Shown: positions 3,640 to 8,199 of the stretch, piece after piece
Layout: the number at the start of each line of letters is the position of its first letter
Position numbering within the stretch: position 1 is the stretch's first letter
From: a virus
IMG/VR virus record: IMGVR_UViG_3300029251_000043
Direction: 5' to 3' (one strand)
Length of the DNA stretch: 36,511 nucleotides
Notes under the pieces: model-generated
Databases searched by the model: none
Seen by the model: the letters and a program-made list of their open reading frames with translations, nothing else
What the model was told of the DNA's origin: nothing
Program-made: the position numbers and the translations under genes

Positions 3640-4566
3640 ATGGAAAGACAGGCAAGAAACACGGCGGGAATTATCACAAACGCAACCGCCAGCCGCGCAC
3701 CAGTCGCGGCGACTACGACCGCACCCGTCGCAGCGCGAACCGTCAACCAGATTCTGAATGGCATGTTCGATTCCGAGGGCTACAAAAAACGCCTGAACGA
3801 TCTGCTGGGTGATCGAGCACCGCAATTTATCTCGGCGGTCATCACGCTTTGCAATGCGGATGCAAACCTGACGGCGGCGGTTCGCCAAGCCCCGCAGACG
3901 GTCATTCAGGCGGCGCTCAAGGCCGCGAGCTATGATCTTCCGGTTGATAACGCGCTCGGTTTCGCCTACATTGTGCCGTTCAATAACAGCAAAAAGACGG
4001 ATGACGGAAGCTGGATCAAGATTCCGGAAGCGCAGTTTATCCTCGGTTACAAGGGCATGATTCAGCTCGCGCTCAGAACCGGGGCATACAAGCGGCTGAA
4101 CGTGATGGACGTGCGCGAGGGGGAGCTGATCTCCTGCGATAGATTGACCGAAGACTTTGAGTTCCGCTGGGAACAGGACGAGACGGAGCGCGAAAAGCTG
4201 CCGATCATCGGCTATGTCGGCTATTATCGCCTTGTGAATGGCACGGAGAAGACGGTATATATGAGCATTCAGCAGATCGAGGCGCACGAAGCGAAGAACC
4301 GAAAGGGAAAGAATCAGGGCAAAGGATGGCGCGACGACTGGGACGCTATGGCGCGGAAAACCGTCATGCGCCGCTTGCTCGGACGCTGGGGCGTTATGTC
4401 CATCGACTACAAGAGCGCATCGCCCGCCGCACTGAAAGCGGCGCATGATATAAGCGCAGGGCTGGTCGATGATGAATCCCCTCTGCCTGATGGCATCGTA
4501 GATGTGACAGACACTGGAACGGCGCATGACGCGCCGGAGAACGTGCCCGAAGACAAAGAACAATAA
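3640..4566 (+). CDS. recT: RecT-family single-strand annealing recombinase
   Basis: ORF-track 3577..4566, start ATG 3640 after AAGGAGG. Carries a GYKGMIQLALRTGAYK type RecT core. Confidence 0.85.
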   Translation: MERQARNTAGIITNATASRAPVAATTTAPVAARTVNQILNGMFDSEGYKKRLNDLLGDRAPQFISAVITLCNADANLTAAVRQAPQTVIQAALKAASYDLPVDNALGFAYIVPFNNSKKTDDGSWIKIPEAQFILGYKGMIQLALRTGAYKRLNVMDVREGELISCDRLTEDFEFRWEQDETEREKLPIIGYVGYYRLVNGTEKTVYMSIQQIEAHEAKNRKGKNQGKGWRDDWDAMARKTVMRRLLGRWGVMSIDYKSASPAALKAAHDISAGLVDDESPLPDGIVDVTDTGTAHDAPENVPEDKEQ

Positions 4567-4781
4567 AAACCGCAAGGGCTAACCCCTTGCGCATGGTGCG
4601 CAGCTCAGGAGAGCAGCTTCAAGGCGGCAAGCAGCGTCAAGAAGAAGGGACGGGTCGATACCGCAGCGCGCCGAACAGAAGAAGTTTGGGTAAGTCAAGC
4701 ACGAAGAAGCTGCTTGAAACGGTGAAAGCTCCAACAGAAGGGAGGATAGCGGAGCAAGGGCAAATTACGATCATACTGACG

Positions 4782-4977
4782 GCTCGGAAAGACGGGCACC
4801 GCACATTTCATTTCTGGCGCTTCGGAAAGACGAAGAACGTGTCCTTTAGCATCGACAGATCGGAAAGACGATCAACAAAATTGACAGCCGGAGAGACGGC
4901 AGAAAGACAAAACTGTTTTTCACATCTGACGGCGGGAAAGACCGCACACCATTTTTTCTGGCAGCCGGAAAGACGGC
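4782..4977 (+). repeat. array of six stem-loops with conserved GARAGA loop and covarying stems
   Basis: Hairpins at 4782-4797, 4820-4835, 4858-4873, 4887-4900, 4932-4945 and 4964-4977. Five loops are GAAAGA and one is GAGAGA. The stems are GCUCG/CGGGC, CUUCG/CGAAG, GAUCG/CGAUC, GCCG/CGGC, GCGG/CCGC and GCCG/CGGC. Confidence 0.85.
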
Positions 4978-5032
4978 AAATAAAAGACGTTTCACAGACG
5001 GCCTGCCGTCGGGCTAAAACGGCGGCACTCAT

Positions 5033-5166
5033 GGCAAGCATGGAAGGCATCGCGCGGGTGCAACACCCCCCCTATTCGTCAAGGTTTCTTCCTTTCCTTC
5101 CATTCTTATGCAAAATTGACGCGAAGCACCTTGCCCACGCGCCCGGTTCGAATCCGGGGCTTGCCA
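5033..5166 (+). ncRNA. tRNA-like module (T arm plus 7-bp acceptor-like helix); not a canonical tRNA
   Basis: CCCGG-TTCGAAT-CCGGG (5142-5158) is followed by GCTTGCC (5159-5165), which is complementary to GGCAAGC (5033-5039). A stacked 8-bp helix pairs 5040-5047 with 5096-5103. Total length is 134 nt, with no recognisable D or anticodon arm and no encoded CCA. Confidence 0.5.
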
Positions 5167-5199
5167 CAATTTTTCAAAAAAGCGAAAGGGGATAATAGA

Positions 5200-5958
5200 T
5201 TGAGGCGAGAGCAATTCACGTTTTATCGCAGCTACTACGAGGCGATGAAAGATTTGTCGGTCGAAGAATGCGCAAAGCTGTTGCTGGCAATCGCGGCGTA
5301 TGCGCTCGATGAAGAAGAGCCGGAGCTTTCCGGAAGCTGCTCGGCGTGTTTTAAGCTGATTCGACCGACGCTTGATTCCGGTCGAAACAAAGCGGCGAAT
5401 CGTATGAACGCCGAGGAACAAACAGAAATCAAACCGAAATCAAACGGCAACAAAGCGAAATCAAATCAGAACAAACTGGAACAAACCGAAATCAAATCAG
5501 AACAAACTGGAACAAACCGGAAGGAGAGAGAGAAAGAGAGTGAGAAAGAGAGTGAGAAAGAGAAAGAGAGAGAGTACGATAGTAGTAGTACCCCCGTACC
5601 CCCTCTGACCGACGACGAACTGCGGCGACTGCGGCAGGAACAGCAGGACGTGGAAACAGCAGCAAAGCGCGTCGGGCTGCCCGTCAGCGCGATGAGTGAC
5701 TACGACACGATGGACAACCTGCGGGCAGAGCATGGAGCGGACAACCTGCTCAAGGCAATCGACAGGATTCAGGGCGCGGCGGAAAAATGCCGGAGCTGGA
5801 GGTATGTCGGCGGGATTCTGCGGAAAGAAAAAAACGCCGGGTATACATGGGCAGAGAGAGCTGCTGAGAGCGGCGGAGGAACGGCAGGAGACGCAGAGGT
5901 GATAACCCGCAACCCGTTCGCGCTGCAATCGCTTAAATGCAGGGGGAGTGTCACATGA
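5200..5958 (+). CDS. replication organizer (DUF6291-like N-terminus, DnaD-like C-terminus)
   Basis: ORF-track 5116..5958. Probable TTG start at 5200 after GAAAGGGGA. N-terminal FTFYRSYYEAMKDL and C-terminal SWRYVGGILRK DnaD-like motifs, with a low-complexity KE-rich linker. Confidence 0.65.
   Translation: MRREQFTFYRSYYEAMKDLSVEECAKLLLAIAAYALDEEEPELSGSCSACFKLIRPTLDSGRNKAANRMNAEEQTEIKPKSNGNKAKSNQNKLEQTEIKSEQTGTNRKEREKESEKESEKEKEREYDSSSTPVPPLTDDELRRLRQEQQDVETAAKRVGLPVSAMSDYDTMDNLRAEHGADNLLKAIDRIQGAAEKCRSWRYVGGILRKEKNAGYTWAERAAESGGGTAGDAEVITRNPFALQSLKCRGSVT
5425..5575. repeat. iteron-like direct repeats plus polypurine tract inside the replication gene (candidate origin)
   Basis: GAAATCAAA occurs at 5425, 5436, 5457 and 5488. 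There is a perfect 31-bp tandem duplication (5457-5487 and 5488-5518), followed by a ~55-nt GA-rich purine tract (5521-5575). Confidence 0.6.
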
Positions 5959-7306: not shown

Positions 7307-7757
7307 GGTTTTTCTGATCGGCAACTTGACCCGTGACCCTGAAATGAGATCCACGCAGTCCGGCGTTCCGGTTTGAAACTTTTCGATTGCGGTAAATCGC
7401 CGCTTTCGTAACCCGCAGACGGGACAGCAGGAAACGGATTTCCTGAACATCGTCGCGTGGCGTCAGCTTGCCGAACTGTGCAGCAAGTATCTTGCCAAAG
7501 GGCGCAAGGTTGCCGTGGCGGGAAGCATCCAGACCCGAACCTACGAGGCGAAGGACGGAAGCAAGAGGACGGCGTGGGATATCGTCGCCGACGAGGTGGA
7601 GTTCCTGTCGCCGCAGAATCAGCAGAGCAGCACACAGAGCGCGCCGGGGGCATACACGACGGCGGCGAGCAAAGGCAGCGGGACGGCCTATGCGCCGCAA
7701 CCGCACAACGATTTTGGCGGATTTACGCAGGTGGATGACGAAGAATTGCCGTTTTGA
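7293..7757 (+). CDS. ssb: single-stranded DNA-binding protein interrupted by one in-frame TGA (7374-7376)
   Basis: Hand translation gives MAVNKVFLIGNLTRDPEMRSTQSGVPV*NFSIAVNRRFRNPQTGQQETDFLNIVAWRQ..., continuing in frame into ORF-track 7515..7757. It ends in the acidic tail DDEELPF. Alternative start GTG 7299. Confidence 0.8.
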
Positions 7758-7770
7758 TGGAGGTTCGAGC

Positions 7771-8199
7771 GTGAATAGCTGTTTATTTTCAAGCGCAACC
7801 GTTGAGTGGGCAACGCCGCAGGCTCTTTTTGACGAGCTGGACGCGGAGTTCCATTTCGACCTTGACCCGTGCTGCACACACGAGAACGCGAAATGCGCGG
7901 AACACTTCACCAAGGCATAGGACGGACTTTCCCAAAATTGGGGGGGTAAAAGGGTGTTTTGCAATCCGCCCTACGGGCGAGAACTCCCGAAGTGGATCAA
8001 GAAAGCGCACGACGAGGCAGAGAAAGGCGCGCTGGTGGTGATGCTCATTCCTGCGAGAACAGACACGCGAGCCTTTCACGACTACATTTATCATCAGGCA
8101 GAGATTAGGTTTTTGAAAGGGCGGATCAAGTTTGGCAATGCGAAAGCGTCCGCGCCTTTTCCGTCGATGGTGGTTATTTTTAGAGGAGGCACGAAATGA
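7771..8199 (+). CDS. phage Dam-like N6-adenine DNA methyltransferase interrupted by one in-frame TAG (7918-7920)
   Basis: GTG 7771 after GGAGG. Sequence ...EWATPQALFDELDAEFHFDLDPCC...HFTKA*DGLSQNWGGKRVFCNPPYG..., with the NPPY motif in ORF-track 7954..8199. Both parts are in the same frame. Confidence 0.75.

Follow-up and report, generated by a model that had tools for sequence, protein, structure and literature searches.

A non-coding RNA element with two tRNA-like domains and a hairpin array between recT and the replication gene of human-gut phages

What occupies positions 4567–5199, between recT and the replication gene, in the phage DNA considered here (IMG/VR record IMGVR_UViG_3300029251_000043; the window, meaning the whole stretch of 36,511 nucleotides that was analysed)? 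A preliminary description took this interval to be free of protein-coding sequence, and the comparison with relatives upholds that claim: all 23 aligned homologs shift frame relative to the open reading frame 4587–5195 (202 codons), with 1–10 frame changes per homolog. The frame begins with TTG without a Shine-Dalgarno sequence, is open only in copies that are identical or 98% identical, and yields a product for which a Pfam search gave no match; no open frame of more than 150 codons exists among homologs at 88–95% identity. The length of the element ranges from 412 to 650 nt across variants, by differences that are not multiples of three, and a conserved reading frame, as expected of a protein-coding gene, is not seen at 4587–5195. 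Automatic pipelines read it as a gene for a 202-aa protein, and gene callers annotate a product of 200–208 aa on the identical or 98%-identical copies; in view of the frame shifts, the non-triplet length differences and the missing Pfam match, this reading can be regarded as already refuted by the comparative sequence data, its probability being practically nil.

What fills the gap is a genuine non-coding RNA of human-gut phages; we compared this element across about 90 contigs comprising 63 distinct sequences. The earlier expectation of a large structured RNA on the + strand, kept in related phages, is borne out by compensatory base changes, and the alignment of homologs that had been proposed as a check reveals them in both tRNA mimics as well as in the hairpin stems. 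The + strand of the region folds better than shuffled sequence (z = −3.2) and the − strand does not (z = −0.6); these scores and the occurrence of U-G pairs indicate that the + strand is the RNA strand. The left neighbour of the element varies among homologs (RecT, SSB or an HNH-type protein), and the right neighbour is always a replication organizer, with varied N-termini. No promoter or terminator belonging to the element was found in the window, and its 3' side runs straight into the ribosome-binding site of the next gene. The parts follow one another in the order hp0, tRNA-like domain 1 (tRL1), linker, n hairpins with GGARAGAC loops, the hairpin 5005–5026 and tRNA-like domain 2 (tRL2):

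4571–4591, + strand: leader hairpin hp0, with an 8-bp stem and a 5-nt loop; a 3-nt spacer, CAU, precedes G+1 of tRL1
4595–4673, + strand: tRL1, a cloverleaf predicted by RNAalifold, with covariation
4595–4601/4666–4672, + strand: tRL1 acceptor
4603–4606/4611–4614, + strand: tRL1 D arm, with the 4-nt loop AGGA
4617–4644, + strand: long central arm of tRL1, with a conserved 8-nt loop NNWAGCRG
4649–4653/4661–4665, + strand: tRL1 T arm, with the loop GUCGAUA
G4673, + strand: tRL1 discriminator
4674–4775, + strand: linker, with hairpins 4696–4716 and 4728–4755
4776–4978, + strand: array of six units YUGRC-N-[4–6 bp stem]-G GARAGA C-[stem'], separated by G-poor spacers
4786–4793, 4824–4831, 4862–4869, 4890–4897, 4935–4942 and 4967–4974, + strand: GGARAGAC loop motifs of the array
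5005–5026, + strand: GC-rich hairpin of 7 bp with an 8-nt loop, 6 nt before tRL2
5033–5166, + strand: tRL2, resembling the tRNA-like domain of tmRNA
5033–5039/5159–5165, + strand: tRL2 acceptor
5142–5146/5154–5158, + strand: tRL2 T arm, with the loop UUCGAAU
Within tRL2, + strand: minimal D region, pair 10:16
Within tRL2, + strand: helix CGCG/CGCG, closing a variable pyrimidine-rich insertion
A5166, + strand: tRL2 discriminator, followed by CAA in the window
5183–5202, + strand: ribosome-binding site GAAAGGGGA and TTG start (5200) of a DUF6291 replication-organizer-like gene, the downstream boundary of the element

How well supported are the individual parts? The 5' cloverleaf 4595–4673 was overlooked in the preliminary description. 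In an alignment of tRL1 (A4), 92% of cells are paired, against 32–49% when the partners are slid, nine pairs change on both sides, and the score is reached by none of 500 shuffles. In place of an anticodon arm the domain carries two 4-bp helices, separated by an internal loop and capped by an 8-nt loop; its T loop, G/C-UCGAUA, is non-canonical at position 54, and in the window copy two of the five T-stem pairs are mismatched. Two of the hairpins proposed earlier, 4635–4652 and 4671–4689, are probably not native, as they compete with helices of this covariation-supported cloverleaf. The 8-bp hairpin 4571–4591 is present as proposed, its stem being swapped for other complementary sequences in three homologs (L021, L227, L321), and the AU at −2/−1 of tRL1 is invariant in 26 sequences. 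A covariance model of tRL1 (R1) run against 57 loci with distant RecT relatives returned no further members. In the linker, the proposed hairpin 4696–4716 persists, with its stem CAAGC/GCUUG kept in homologs that have different loops. The loop of the second linker hairpin, 4728–4755, holds AGAAGGGAGGA (4736–4746), which is strongly Shine-Dalgarno-like and is followed by no start codon; CAGAARGGAGGA occurs in the linker of 39 of the 63 variants, the remainder having a hairpin with a GGAGAGARAGG loop instead, and the stem closing the Shine-Dalgarno-like loop switches from GCUCC/GGAGC to GCCC/GGGC among variants. Pairing of this loop with the pyrimidine tract of tRL2 is possible by eye in several variants; it lacks consistent covariation and we do not claim it.

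On the 3' side, the tRNA-like module expected at 5033–5166 is recovered with the acceptor GGCAAGC/GCUUGCC and the T arm CCCGG-UUCGAAU-CCGGG. Eleven of the 63 sequences have G-C/A-U instead of A-U/G-C at acceptor pairs 5:68 and 6:67, pairs of the T stem vary as G-C/U-A and C-G/U-A, and pair 10:16 is G-C in 35 sequences, A-U in 27 and G-U in one. The domain is directly preceded by YAU in 58 of the 63 sequences and followed by NCCA in about half of the homologs; in variants of the L352 type it is 73 nt in its entirety. The neighbouring hairpin 5005–5026 was likewise correctly recognized, with 7 bp and with C-G, U-G and U-A seen at two pair positions.

The six hairpins with GARAGA loops that had been read from the sequence are confirmed, with GGARAGAC at 4786, 4824, 4862, 4890, 4935 and 4967. 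The whole window contains nine copies of GGARAGAC against 2.7 expected, six of them clustered in 4776–4978. At least eight different stem sequences, with U-G pairs on the + strand, stay complementary around the invariant loop, and the number of hairpins per element varies from 1 to 7 among the 63 variants. Within the window the units are 68–84% identical, are spaced at 28–45 nt and have different stems. A search of the window for targets complementary to the loop (GUCUUUCC) found a single + strand site, whose complement GGAAAGAC is read on the − strand inside an HTH-repressor-like gene (415–591). We rejected a type III antitoxin (ToxI/CptI-like) or a phage mimic of one, which would consist of near-identical 34–45 nt tandem repeats with pseudoknots and would adjoin or match a toxin, because the repeats of the array are too irregular in identity, spacing and stems; they do not resemble the CptI repeat given in PMC4627078, and no toxin gene was found near the element. 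The ncRNA arrays of UG27 reverse transcriptases are not comparable either, having 150-nt units that adjoin a reverse transcriptase.

Does the element belong to a known RNA family? The top half of a tRNA is preserved in both mimics—a 7-bp acceptor, a 5-bp T stem, a 7-nt T loop (UUCRANY) and GG in the D loop, in agreement with the compensatory changes—and variable arms replace the anticodon arm. By ARAGORN and RF00005 neither proved to be a canonical tRNA, in which the anticodon stem has 5 bp and the anticodon loop 7 nt. ARAGORN at default settings found nothing in the window or in 10 homolog loci, calling tRNAs on the mimics only at score thresholds of 50–70% (tRL1 at 50%) and a tmRNA only at 50%, with implausible tags. 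Nor is the element recognizable as a tmRNA by RF00023, permuted models or ARAGORN, or by an enclosed tag frame with resume codon and stop, and G3-U70 is absent: pair 3:70 is U-G, C-G or U-A in tRL1 and C-G in all 63 sequences of tRL2. The kinship with the large ornate phage RNAs ROOL and GOLLD that the preliminary description had considered finds no support, given that neither model (RF03087, RF01998) matches the window at the gathering score. The covariance search that it had suggested, which included the tmRNA and tRNA models, gave no match on 4400–5400, where no Rfam family appears even at E ≤ 10; none appears at E ≤ 1 on four diverse homologs. The associated picture of a free-standing RNA is not supported either: the element is without its own promoter or terminator in the window and abuts the next ribosome-binding site, and the hairpin repeated in it serves gut-phage transcripts generally as a cis motif. 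The further suggestion of a new class fares better, and the element appears to be one. In a BLAST comparison with 50,697 deposited phage genomes, neither the element nor 17 kb of the phage had a DNA relative, and an exact 18-mer scan of GTDB species genomes for a host gave chance matches only.

The hairpin unit UGGCR-GCYCG-GAAAGA-CGRGC-A reaches well beyond this locus. It is a compact motif, with matches to one 19-nt pattern in more than 120 viral contigs, and its conserved extent is only 22 nt in a comparison of 91 contexts. About 30% of its copies have a tRNA gene 0–50 nt downstream: among 99 copies, a tRNA starts 0–15 nt downstream in 27 and 16–50 nt downstream in 6 more, against a background density of 0.17 tRNAs per kb, and a tRNA ends just upstream in none. 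In three different array families the hairpins are arrayed right before the ribosome-binding site of phrog_13908 genes; in L665 an array precedes a phrog_270 replication-initiator gene. A genuine phage tmRNA (in L437; Rfam RF00023, 96.9 bits) contains the unit three times in its pseudoknot region, aligned with the conserved AAAGAC of the tmRNA consensus. L483 and L460 display the plan of tRNA-like domain, array and tRNA-like domain just downstream of a Bacteroides-type promoter and beside a CI-like repressor gene; the L483-type element represents a second, unrelated phage group with the same three-part plan. A literature search for the motif sequence returned unrelated primers only, and the motif is a widespread phage signal that is apparently undescribed. 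If such a role holds, its strict placement ahead of tRNA genes would hint at a step in the expression or processing of phage tRNAs that has so far gone unrecognised. A hairpin that close (0–15 nt) to the 5' end of a tRNA might just as well serve as a nuclease site or protect a 3' end.

The reading that we favour, tentatively and short of an even chance, is that the stretch is a non-coding RNA leader, co-transcribed with the early operon, cut at its tRNA mimics and bound at its hairpins by some factor. Its place in the early transcript would be just ahead of the replication genes. Host RNase P, assuming that the host supplies the usual RNases, would cut after the U preceding each mimic (4594, 5032), where a stable hairpin 3–6 nt upstream, together with the AU or YAU and with the NCCA after tRL2 in about half of the variants, is counted as RNase P context. 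The GC-rich hairpins hp0 and 5005–5026 would then shield the new 3' ends of the upstream fragments, the 3' ends of the mimics would be finished by RNase Z or the CCA-adding enzyme, and the cuts would separate a recombination mRNA, a hairpin-array RNA and a replication mRNA. The boxB-like hairpins would be binding sites of one putative sequence-specific protein of phage or host origin, several copies raising its occupancy on a long untranslated stretch, which would probably secure transcription through to the downstream genes, or the stability and translation of their RNA—the replication genes here, and elsewhere tRNAs and phrog_13908 genes. A Pfam search of 16 window proteins identified no RNA-binding or tRNA-related protein and no candidate hairpin-binding partner, whether N-like or NusG-like. 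Since a single tRNA mimic would be enough for punctuation, the presence of two mimics and an array suggests that the excised RNA may have a job of its own.

What might that job be? A possible though rather doubtful answer is a trans-acting decoy, in which the tRNA- and tmRNA-like RNAs, once excised, and the array soak up a host factor whose normal substrate is tRNA or tmRNA; candidate targets are SmpB, RNase R, RNase P, and defence toxins that modify CCA ends or cleave tRNAs. Two complete top-half tRNA mimics under structural selection would suit such a role, as would the tmRNA-like construction of tRL2, only 73 nt in some variants, the three copies of the unit that a genuine phage tmRNA has in its pseudoknot region, and a copy number of 1–7 among close relatives, as expected of a dosage-driven sponge. 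There are also precedents: a tmRNA without a coding sequence in mycobacteriophage DS6A inhibits host tmRNA, according to the passage of PMC11915505 that cites Mao et al. 2009, and the anti-CRISPR AcrIIIA1 uses t(m)RNA fragments (PMC11662646). However, neither mimic has the G3-U70 needed for alanine charging, no Rfam tmRNA model matches, the window offers no own promoter for a high RNA dosage, and the same hairpin precedes ordinary protein genes, where a decoy makes little sense. Similarly unlikely is a broader conception in which the 22-nt hairpin is the site of an RNA-directed gut-phage system controlling tRNA, structural and replication genes, and the elements are a new RNA class mimicking the translation apparatus in trans. 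Its parts would be the tRNA top halves, the tmRNA-type unit and an anti-Shine-Dalgarno-binding loop, and the elements, processed by RNase P and RNase Z, would act in trans against a host defence or quality-control factor.

The element might, at the other extreme, have no function at all. We regard as improbable a vestigial phage tRNA cluster made up of pseudo-tRNAs and leftover tRNA-leader hairpins, even though the hairpin is a tRNA 5'-leader element in other gut phages and neither mimic is accepted as a tRNA by ARAGORN or Rfam. The window phage carries nonsense codons in its SSB and methylase genes, which would fit decay, and because of these codons and the two T-stem mismatches of tRL1 the window copy may be inactive. 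The 63 distinct variants from about 90 contigs nevertheless keep both cloverleaves via compensatory changes, the loop motifs are invariant while the flanking genes are shuffled, and a second, unrelated phage group shares the three-part plan, all of which argues against decay of the element as such. The in-frame stops also raised the idea of a suppressor tRNA, which we rejected: relatives with the same RNA all have sense codons at these places, and the mimics are without anticodon loops.

Decidedly improbable is a replication element, whether a transcribed origin or primer RNA or a set of single-stranded DNA hairpins used for priming beside the replication genes. It would account for the invariable position immediately upstream of the replication-organizer gene, the purine-rich + strand (AT skew up to 0.49) and the array before the initiator gene in L665. 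The preliminary description had named an origin RNA as an alternative, which is weakened by the finding that the element is kept with organizer genes of different N-terminal, origin-specific domains. The iterons lie at 5425–5575, inside the organizer gene, the hairpin also precedes tRNA and phrog_13908 genes unrelated to origins, and the T-loop, CCA and cloverleaf features together with the U-G pairs point to an RNA seen by tRNA enzymes.

Very improbable, finally, is mimicry of the peptidyl-transferase loop of 23S rRNA, with the array as decoy for a factor acting on that part of the ribosome. The hairpin motif CGGAAAGAC equals 23S nucleotides 2055–2063, a stretch that takes in the macrolide site and Erm target (A2058 and A2059); we verified the 9-mer identity in E. 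coli 23S, where a distance of 602 nt to A2660 in the sarcin-ricin loop identifies the motif's first A as A2058. Small hairpins carrying this sequence are Erm substrates (PMC7449152, PMC12116650), but Erm recognition rests on the irregular helix 73 rather than on nucleotides 2059–2063 (PMC7449152), and the stems of the array are regular and variable. The resemblance was noticed only after the fact, the probability that a given 9-mer is present in rRNA is about 2%, and the element shares 11 9-mers with rRNA against 12.7 in shuffles, 8- to 10-mers being no commoner either.

Should the processed-leader reading and the wider role of the hairpin hold, the consequences extend beyond this phage. The human gut would harbour a common phage RNA family that no Rfam model covers and that is mis-annotated as a hypothetical protein of 200 aa, a compact hairpin signal would be common to more than 100 gut-phage contigs, and tRNA mimicry inside a DNA-phage operon would be directly testable. 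The step suggested by the motif would complement the theta (HDV-like) ribozymes at tRNA 3' ends, which reside in Caudoviricetes of the gut whose hosts are Bacteroidota or Bacillota, in close association with phage tRNA genes (PMC10879173). The two share the gut-phage niche; the theta ribozymes are self-cleaving and sit at the tRNA 3' end, whereas the hairpin motif lies on the 5' side and has 22 nt without a ribozyme core. Likely theta-type sequences are seen 3' of tRNAs in some motif contigs (L514, L506).

How does the element compare with other known systems? ROOL and GOLLD likewise occur in phages, measure several hundred nucleotides and have tRNA-related neighbours, but they have one conserved multi-domain fold, whereas the element is modular, repetitive, variable in copy number and embedded in an operon. 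Its tRL2 resembles the tRNA-like domain of tmRNA in its acceptor, its T arm, its shortened D region and the helix that stands where a tRNA has its anticodon arm. Unlike tmRNA, the element has no G3-U70, tag frame or pseudoknots, it has two tRNA-like domains, and its hairpin array lies outside the tRNA-like domain rather than being enclosed by it. Relatives of tmRNA that lack an ORF have been recorded in phages (PMC11915505), and the decoy reading would bring the element close to the DS6A case. The processed-leader reading points elsewhere, to the hairpins of lambda-type nut sites and of LoaP leaders, which the unit seems to resemble in form and genomic position, joining a linear element (YUGRC) to a 5-bp hairpin with a purine-rich, GNRA-like loop (GAAAGA here, GAAGA or GAAAA in boxB). 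A lambda-type nut site consists of boxA and the boxB hairpin, whose GNRA-like pentaloop is bound by the arginine-rich peptide of an N-type protein, so that downstream terminators are read through, and LoaP is a specialised NusG paralog that binds leader hairpins. The unit is also orientation-specific and follows early promoters, standing ahead of replication genes as nutR does, and ahead of late operons and untranslated RNA genes. It departs from boxB in its hexaloop in place of a pentaloop, in often having a ribosome-binding site or the start of a tRNA only 0–15 nt away, and in its arrays of up to seven copies; lambdoid nut sites are not known to carry more than a single boxB each. Processing signals that look like tRNAs are familiar from the C4 RNA that RNase P processes in phages P1 and P7 and the stable RNAs of the T4 tRNA cluster, and also from the MALAT1-mascRNA pair, the tRNA-miRNA hairpin transcripts of MHV68 and engineered tRNA-gRNA arrays. 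As in these systems, the mimics would flank a non-tRNA RNA that RNase P and RNase Z could release, hairpins upstream of the predicted cuts could protect the new 3' ends, and virus-encoded tRNA-like modules appear joined to hairpins. What sets the gut-phage element apart from them is its unrelated sequence and its cargo, an array of one hairpin motif that is also found away from the mimics.

The stretch 4567-5199, which the preliminary description had taken for a candidate large structured RNA, is a real structural element, and it proves richer in detail than described.

Features of the element and its neighbours in the window
3640-4566: RecT gene, left neighbour of 4567-5199
4571-4591, + strand: leader hairpin hp0, structure kept with a quite different stem sequence in the homologous contigs L021, L227 and L321
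4595-4673, + strand: tRNA-like cloverleaf (first mimic), overlooked previously
4696-4716, + strand: hairpin
4728-4755, + strand: linker hairpin displaying AGAAGGGAGGA
4786, 4824, 4862, 4890, 4935 and 4967, + strand: GGARAGAC of the six GARAGA-loop hairpins
5005-5026, + strand: GC hairpin after the array
5033-5166, + strand: second tRNA-like domain (second mimic)
5200: TTG start of a DUF6291 gene, right neighbour of 4567-5199

Relative to shuffled controls the + strand is more stably folded (z = -3.2), whereas the - strand is not (z = -0.6). Searches by RecT relatives and by DNA pattern brought together homologs on about 36 contigs from IMG/VR and 51 from human-gut metagenomes, every source being a human-gut sample; these comprise 63 distinct sequences of 412-650 nt. 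A global RNAalifold consensus of 41 short forms shows the same modules. No relatives were found among deposited phage genomes, nor in GTDB species genomes searched with one 18-mer. The hairpins listed earlier at 4571-4591, 4696-4716 and 5005-5026 and the six with GARAGA loops are all present; those proposed at 4635-4652 and 4671-4689 compete with the cloverleaf and are probably not native. GGARAGAC occurs nine times in the whole window versus 2.7 expected, with six copies clustered in the element. Each array holds one to seven units built as YUGRC-N-stem-GGARAGAC-stem', with G-poor spacers between them. Complementarity around the invariant loop is kept by at least eight different stem sequences, and U-G pairs occur in the unit stems on the + strand only. 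In place of AGAAGGGAGGA, other variants of the linker hairpin show AGAAAGGAGG, a full complement of the Bacillota 16S rRNA 3' tail; no start codon follows this Shine-Dalgarno-like loop. The structural description very probably holds.

In the first mimic an acceptor stem of 7 bp is combined with a D arm (GCUC-AGGA-GAGC), a T arm whose loop reads GUCGAUA and a long central arm capped by a conserved 8-nt loop, NNWAGCRG. RNAalifold returns it unaided; across a 26-sequence alignment 92% of cells are paired, versus 32-49% with slid partners, nine pairs are altered on both sides, and the covariation score is reached by none of 500 shuffles. The second mimic, already noted as a tRNA-like module, likewise shows compensatory changes among the 63 sequences: acceptor pairs 5:68 and 6:67 change jointly in 11, T-stem pairs alternate between G-C and U-A, and pair 10:16 is G-C in 35, A-U in 27 and G-U in one. 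The helix beside its T arm is CGCG/CGCG in some sequences and CAGC/GCUG in others, and surrounds an insertion that differs among variants in both size and sequence; the entire domain measures 73 nt in the smallest of them. A hairpin and then (C/U)AU precede each mimic (CAC in five copies of the second), and NCCA is encoded after the second in about half of the homologs. ARAGORN makes no call at normal thresholds; calls for both mimics, at the coordinates derived by comparison, appear only when the threshold is lowered to 50-70%.

The window's own copy has two T-stem mismatches in the first mimic. The SSB gene of this phage (7293-7757) is interrupted by an in-frame TGA at 7374-7376, where every relative has Cys (TGY); this reflects either a sequencing error or a nonsense mutation, and the phage copy may thus be defective. 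At 7918-7920 an in-frame TAG replaces the Glu of relatives in a gene (7757-8199) for a Dam-like N6-adenine methyltransferase with an NPPY motif. Given the mismatches and the nonsense codons, the element copy itself may be impaired.

Members of the window's family differ in the left neighbour (RecT, an SSB gene ending ..DDELPF, or an HNH-type protein gene), while the right neighbour is always a replication-organizer-like gene, with at least three N-terminal domain versions and a common C-terminal part. The DUF6291 gene is followed by genes for a G39P-type helicase loader and a VRR-NUC protein. Neither a promoter nor a terminator belonging to the element is predicted in the window, and the next ribosome-binding site starts about 17 nt past the second mimic; the element is therefore part of the head of the replication module, transcribed by read-through. 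Within the DUF6291 gene, between the regions for the N- and C-terminal domains, the candidate iterons noted earlier at 5425-5575 are indeed direct repeats (GAAATCAAA five times, a 21-mer twice, GAGAGTGAGAAA twice), resembling the origin iterons of a replisome-organizer gene. Elsewhere in the window, a DUF7666 protein (1296-2294) has about 16 tandem copies of the 9-aa repeat SGDYANLAS, with a long shadow ORF on the opposite strand.

A scan for three spaced GGAAAGAC copies returned mostly coding Gly-Lys-Thr repeats, plus non-coding arrays of the hairpin unit.

Arrays and related elements in other viral contigs
L437, 2788-3203: genuine phage tmRNA containing an array (ARAGORN; Rfam RF00023, 96.9 bits)
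L483, 2090-2600, and L460, 100-490: second tRNA-like/hairpin-array/tRNA-like family
L622, 7912-7970 (about 20 similar contigs), L636 and L620: arrays with three to six copies of the GGARAGAC hairpin before the ribosome-binding site of phrog_13908 genes

In the tmRNA, three GGAAAGAC units occupy the expected places of pseudoknots 2-4, the last aligning to the conserved AAAGAC of the tmRNA consensus; its predicted tag is unusually long, and tRNA-Tyr and tRNA-Ser genes lie upstream on this 113-kb contig. In the second family, hp0 and a tRNA-like domain are followed by four to six units and then by a second T arm with acceptor, the whole placed just 3' of a Bacteroides-type promoter box (TAtcTTTG) and adjoining a CI-like repressor gene; the first domain of L483 contains AGGAGG followed by a 15-codon ORF. 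Overall, arrays of two to six units, from three different array families, directly precede ribosome-binding sites of phrog_13908 genes, whose products have an N-terminus like LQLFAEG and are judged scaffold-like from sequence and position. Another array precedes a replication-initiator gene.

A 19-nt unit pattern matches at least 120 viral contigs versus roughly six by chance. Among the matches listed, the core conserved over 91 distinct contexts is only 22 nt, U-GGC-R-[GCYCG]-GAAAGA-[CGRGC]-A; a same-strand tRNA starts 0-15 nt downstream of 27 of 99 non-redundant copies and 16-50 nt downstream of six more, and none of the 99 directly follows the end of a tRNA. By comparison, unit-bearing loci have only 0.17 tRNAs per kb overall. 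Some units, as in contig L502, stand ahead of tRNA-like modules that go uncalled by ARAGORN. The unit defines a widespread and apparently undescribed gut-phage motif. Its sequence is absent from the searchable literature except as unrelated primers. Two further RNAs were seen in these contigs: CCGGCTCRATCGAGTCGG, probably a theta (HDV-like) ribozyme of the kind described for gut phages, directly 3' of tRNA-Leu genes (L514, 4688-4730, and L506), and an above-threshold match to C4 antisense RNA (Rfam RF01695) at 654-740 of L409, a contig from the repeat scan.

What could be the role of such an assembly? Both mimics retain the acceptor/T minihelix and elbow without the anticodon half, and these are the tRNA parts recognised by RNase P, RNase Z and the CCA-adding enzyme. 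In both, position -1 is a U and a stable hairpin lies close by on the 5' side; on these grounds we propose a processing scheme. The transcript would be cut at 4594/4595 and 5032/5033 and trimmed after G4673 and A5166, with hp0 and the hairpin at 5005-5026 shielding the new 3' ends. The Shine-Dalgarno-like loop could serve as a ribosome-binding stabiliser, of which examples are known in Bacillus. The GGARAGAC hairpin, with its invariant loop, freely varying stems, short conserved 5' tail and strict orientation, is found upstream of untranslated tRNA genes and of highly expressed genes, and downstream of an early promoter; it looks like the binding site of one sequence-specific protein. Such hairpins might secure read-through or stability of downstream RNA, the six copies doing so for the replication genes. 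Processing at the mimics combined with protein-bound hairpins securing downstream read-through or stability is quite possible, and we advance it tentatively as the favoured reading.

The main alternative, a trans-acting tRNA/tmRNA decoy, is unlikely; it has precedents in mycobacteriophage DS6A, which encodes a tmRNA that lacks the coding part and inhibits the tmRNA of the host (PMC11915505), and in the use of t(m)RNA fragments by an anti-CRISPR (PMC11662646). A vestigial tRNA cluster is improbable, and an origin or primer RNA slightly more so. Mimicry of the 23S A2058 loop is very improbable: the resemblance is exact over nine bases, but a k-mer control expects such matches by chance, and Erm recognition rests on helix 73, not on these bases (PMC7449152). 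A protein-coding gene at 4587-5195 can practically be dismissed, for this 202-codon ORF stays intact in no copies but those that are identical or 98% identical, on which pipelines annotated a 200-208 aa protein, has no Pfam match, and is broken by 1-10 frame shifts in all 23 aligned homologs, with no open frame above 150 codons in relatives at 88-95% identity; the frame is clearly not conserved, as the earlier reading of 4567-5199 as lacking a credible CDS had it.

The suggested kinship with ROOL or GOLLD is rejected, since Rfam models, including these two, tRNA and all tmRNA models, match neither the region at E <= 10 nor, for any family, diverse homologs at E <= 1. Among known systems, boxB of nut sites is closest in form to the GGARAGAC hairpin, and the element is a new composite of known types of RNA part, joining tRNA mimics to boxB-like hairpins.
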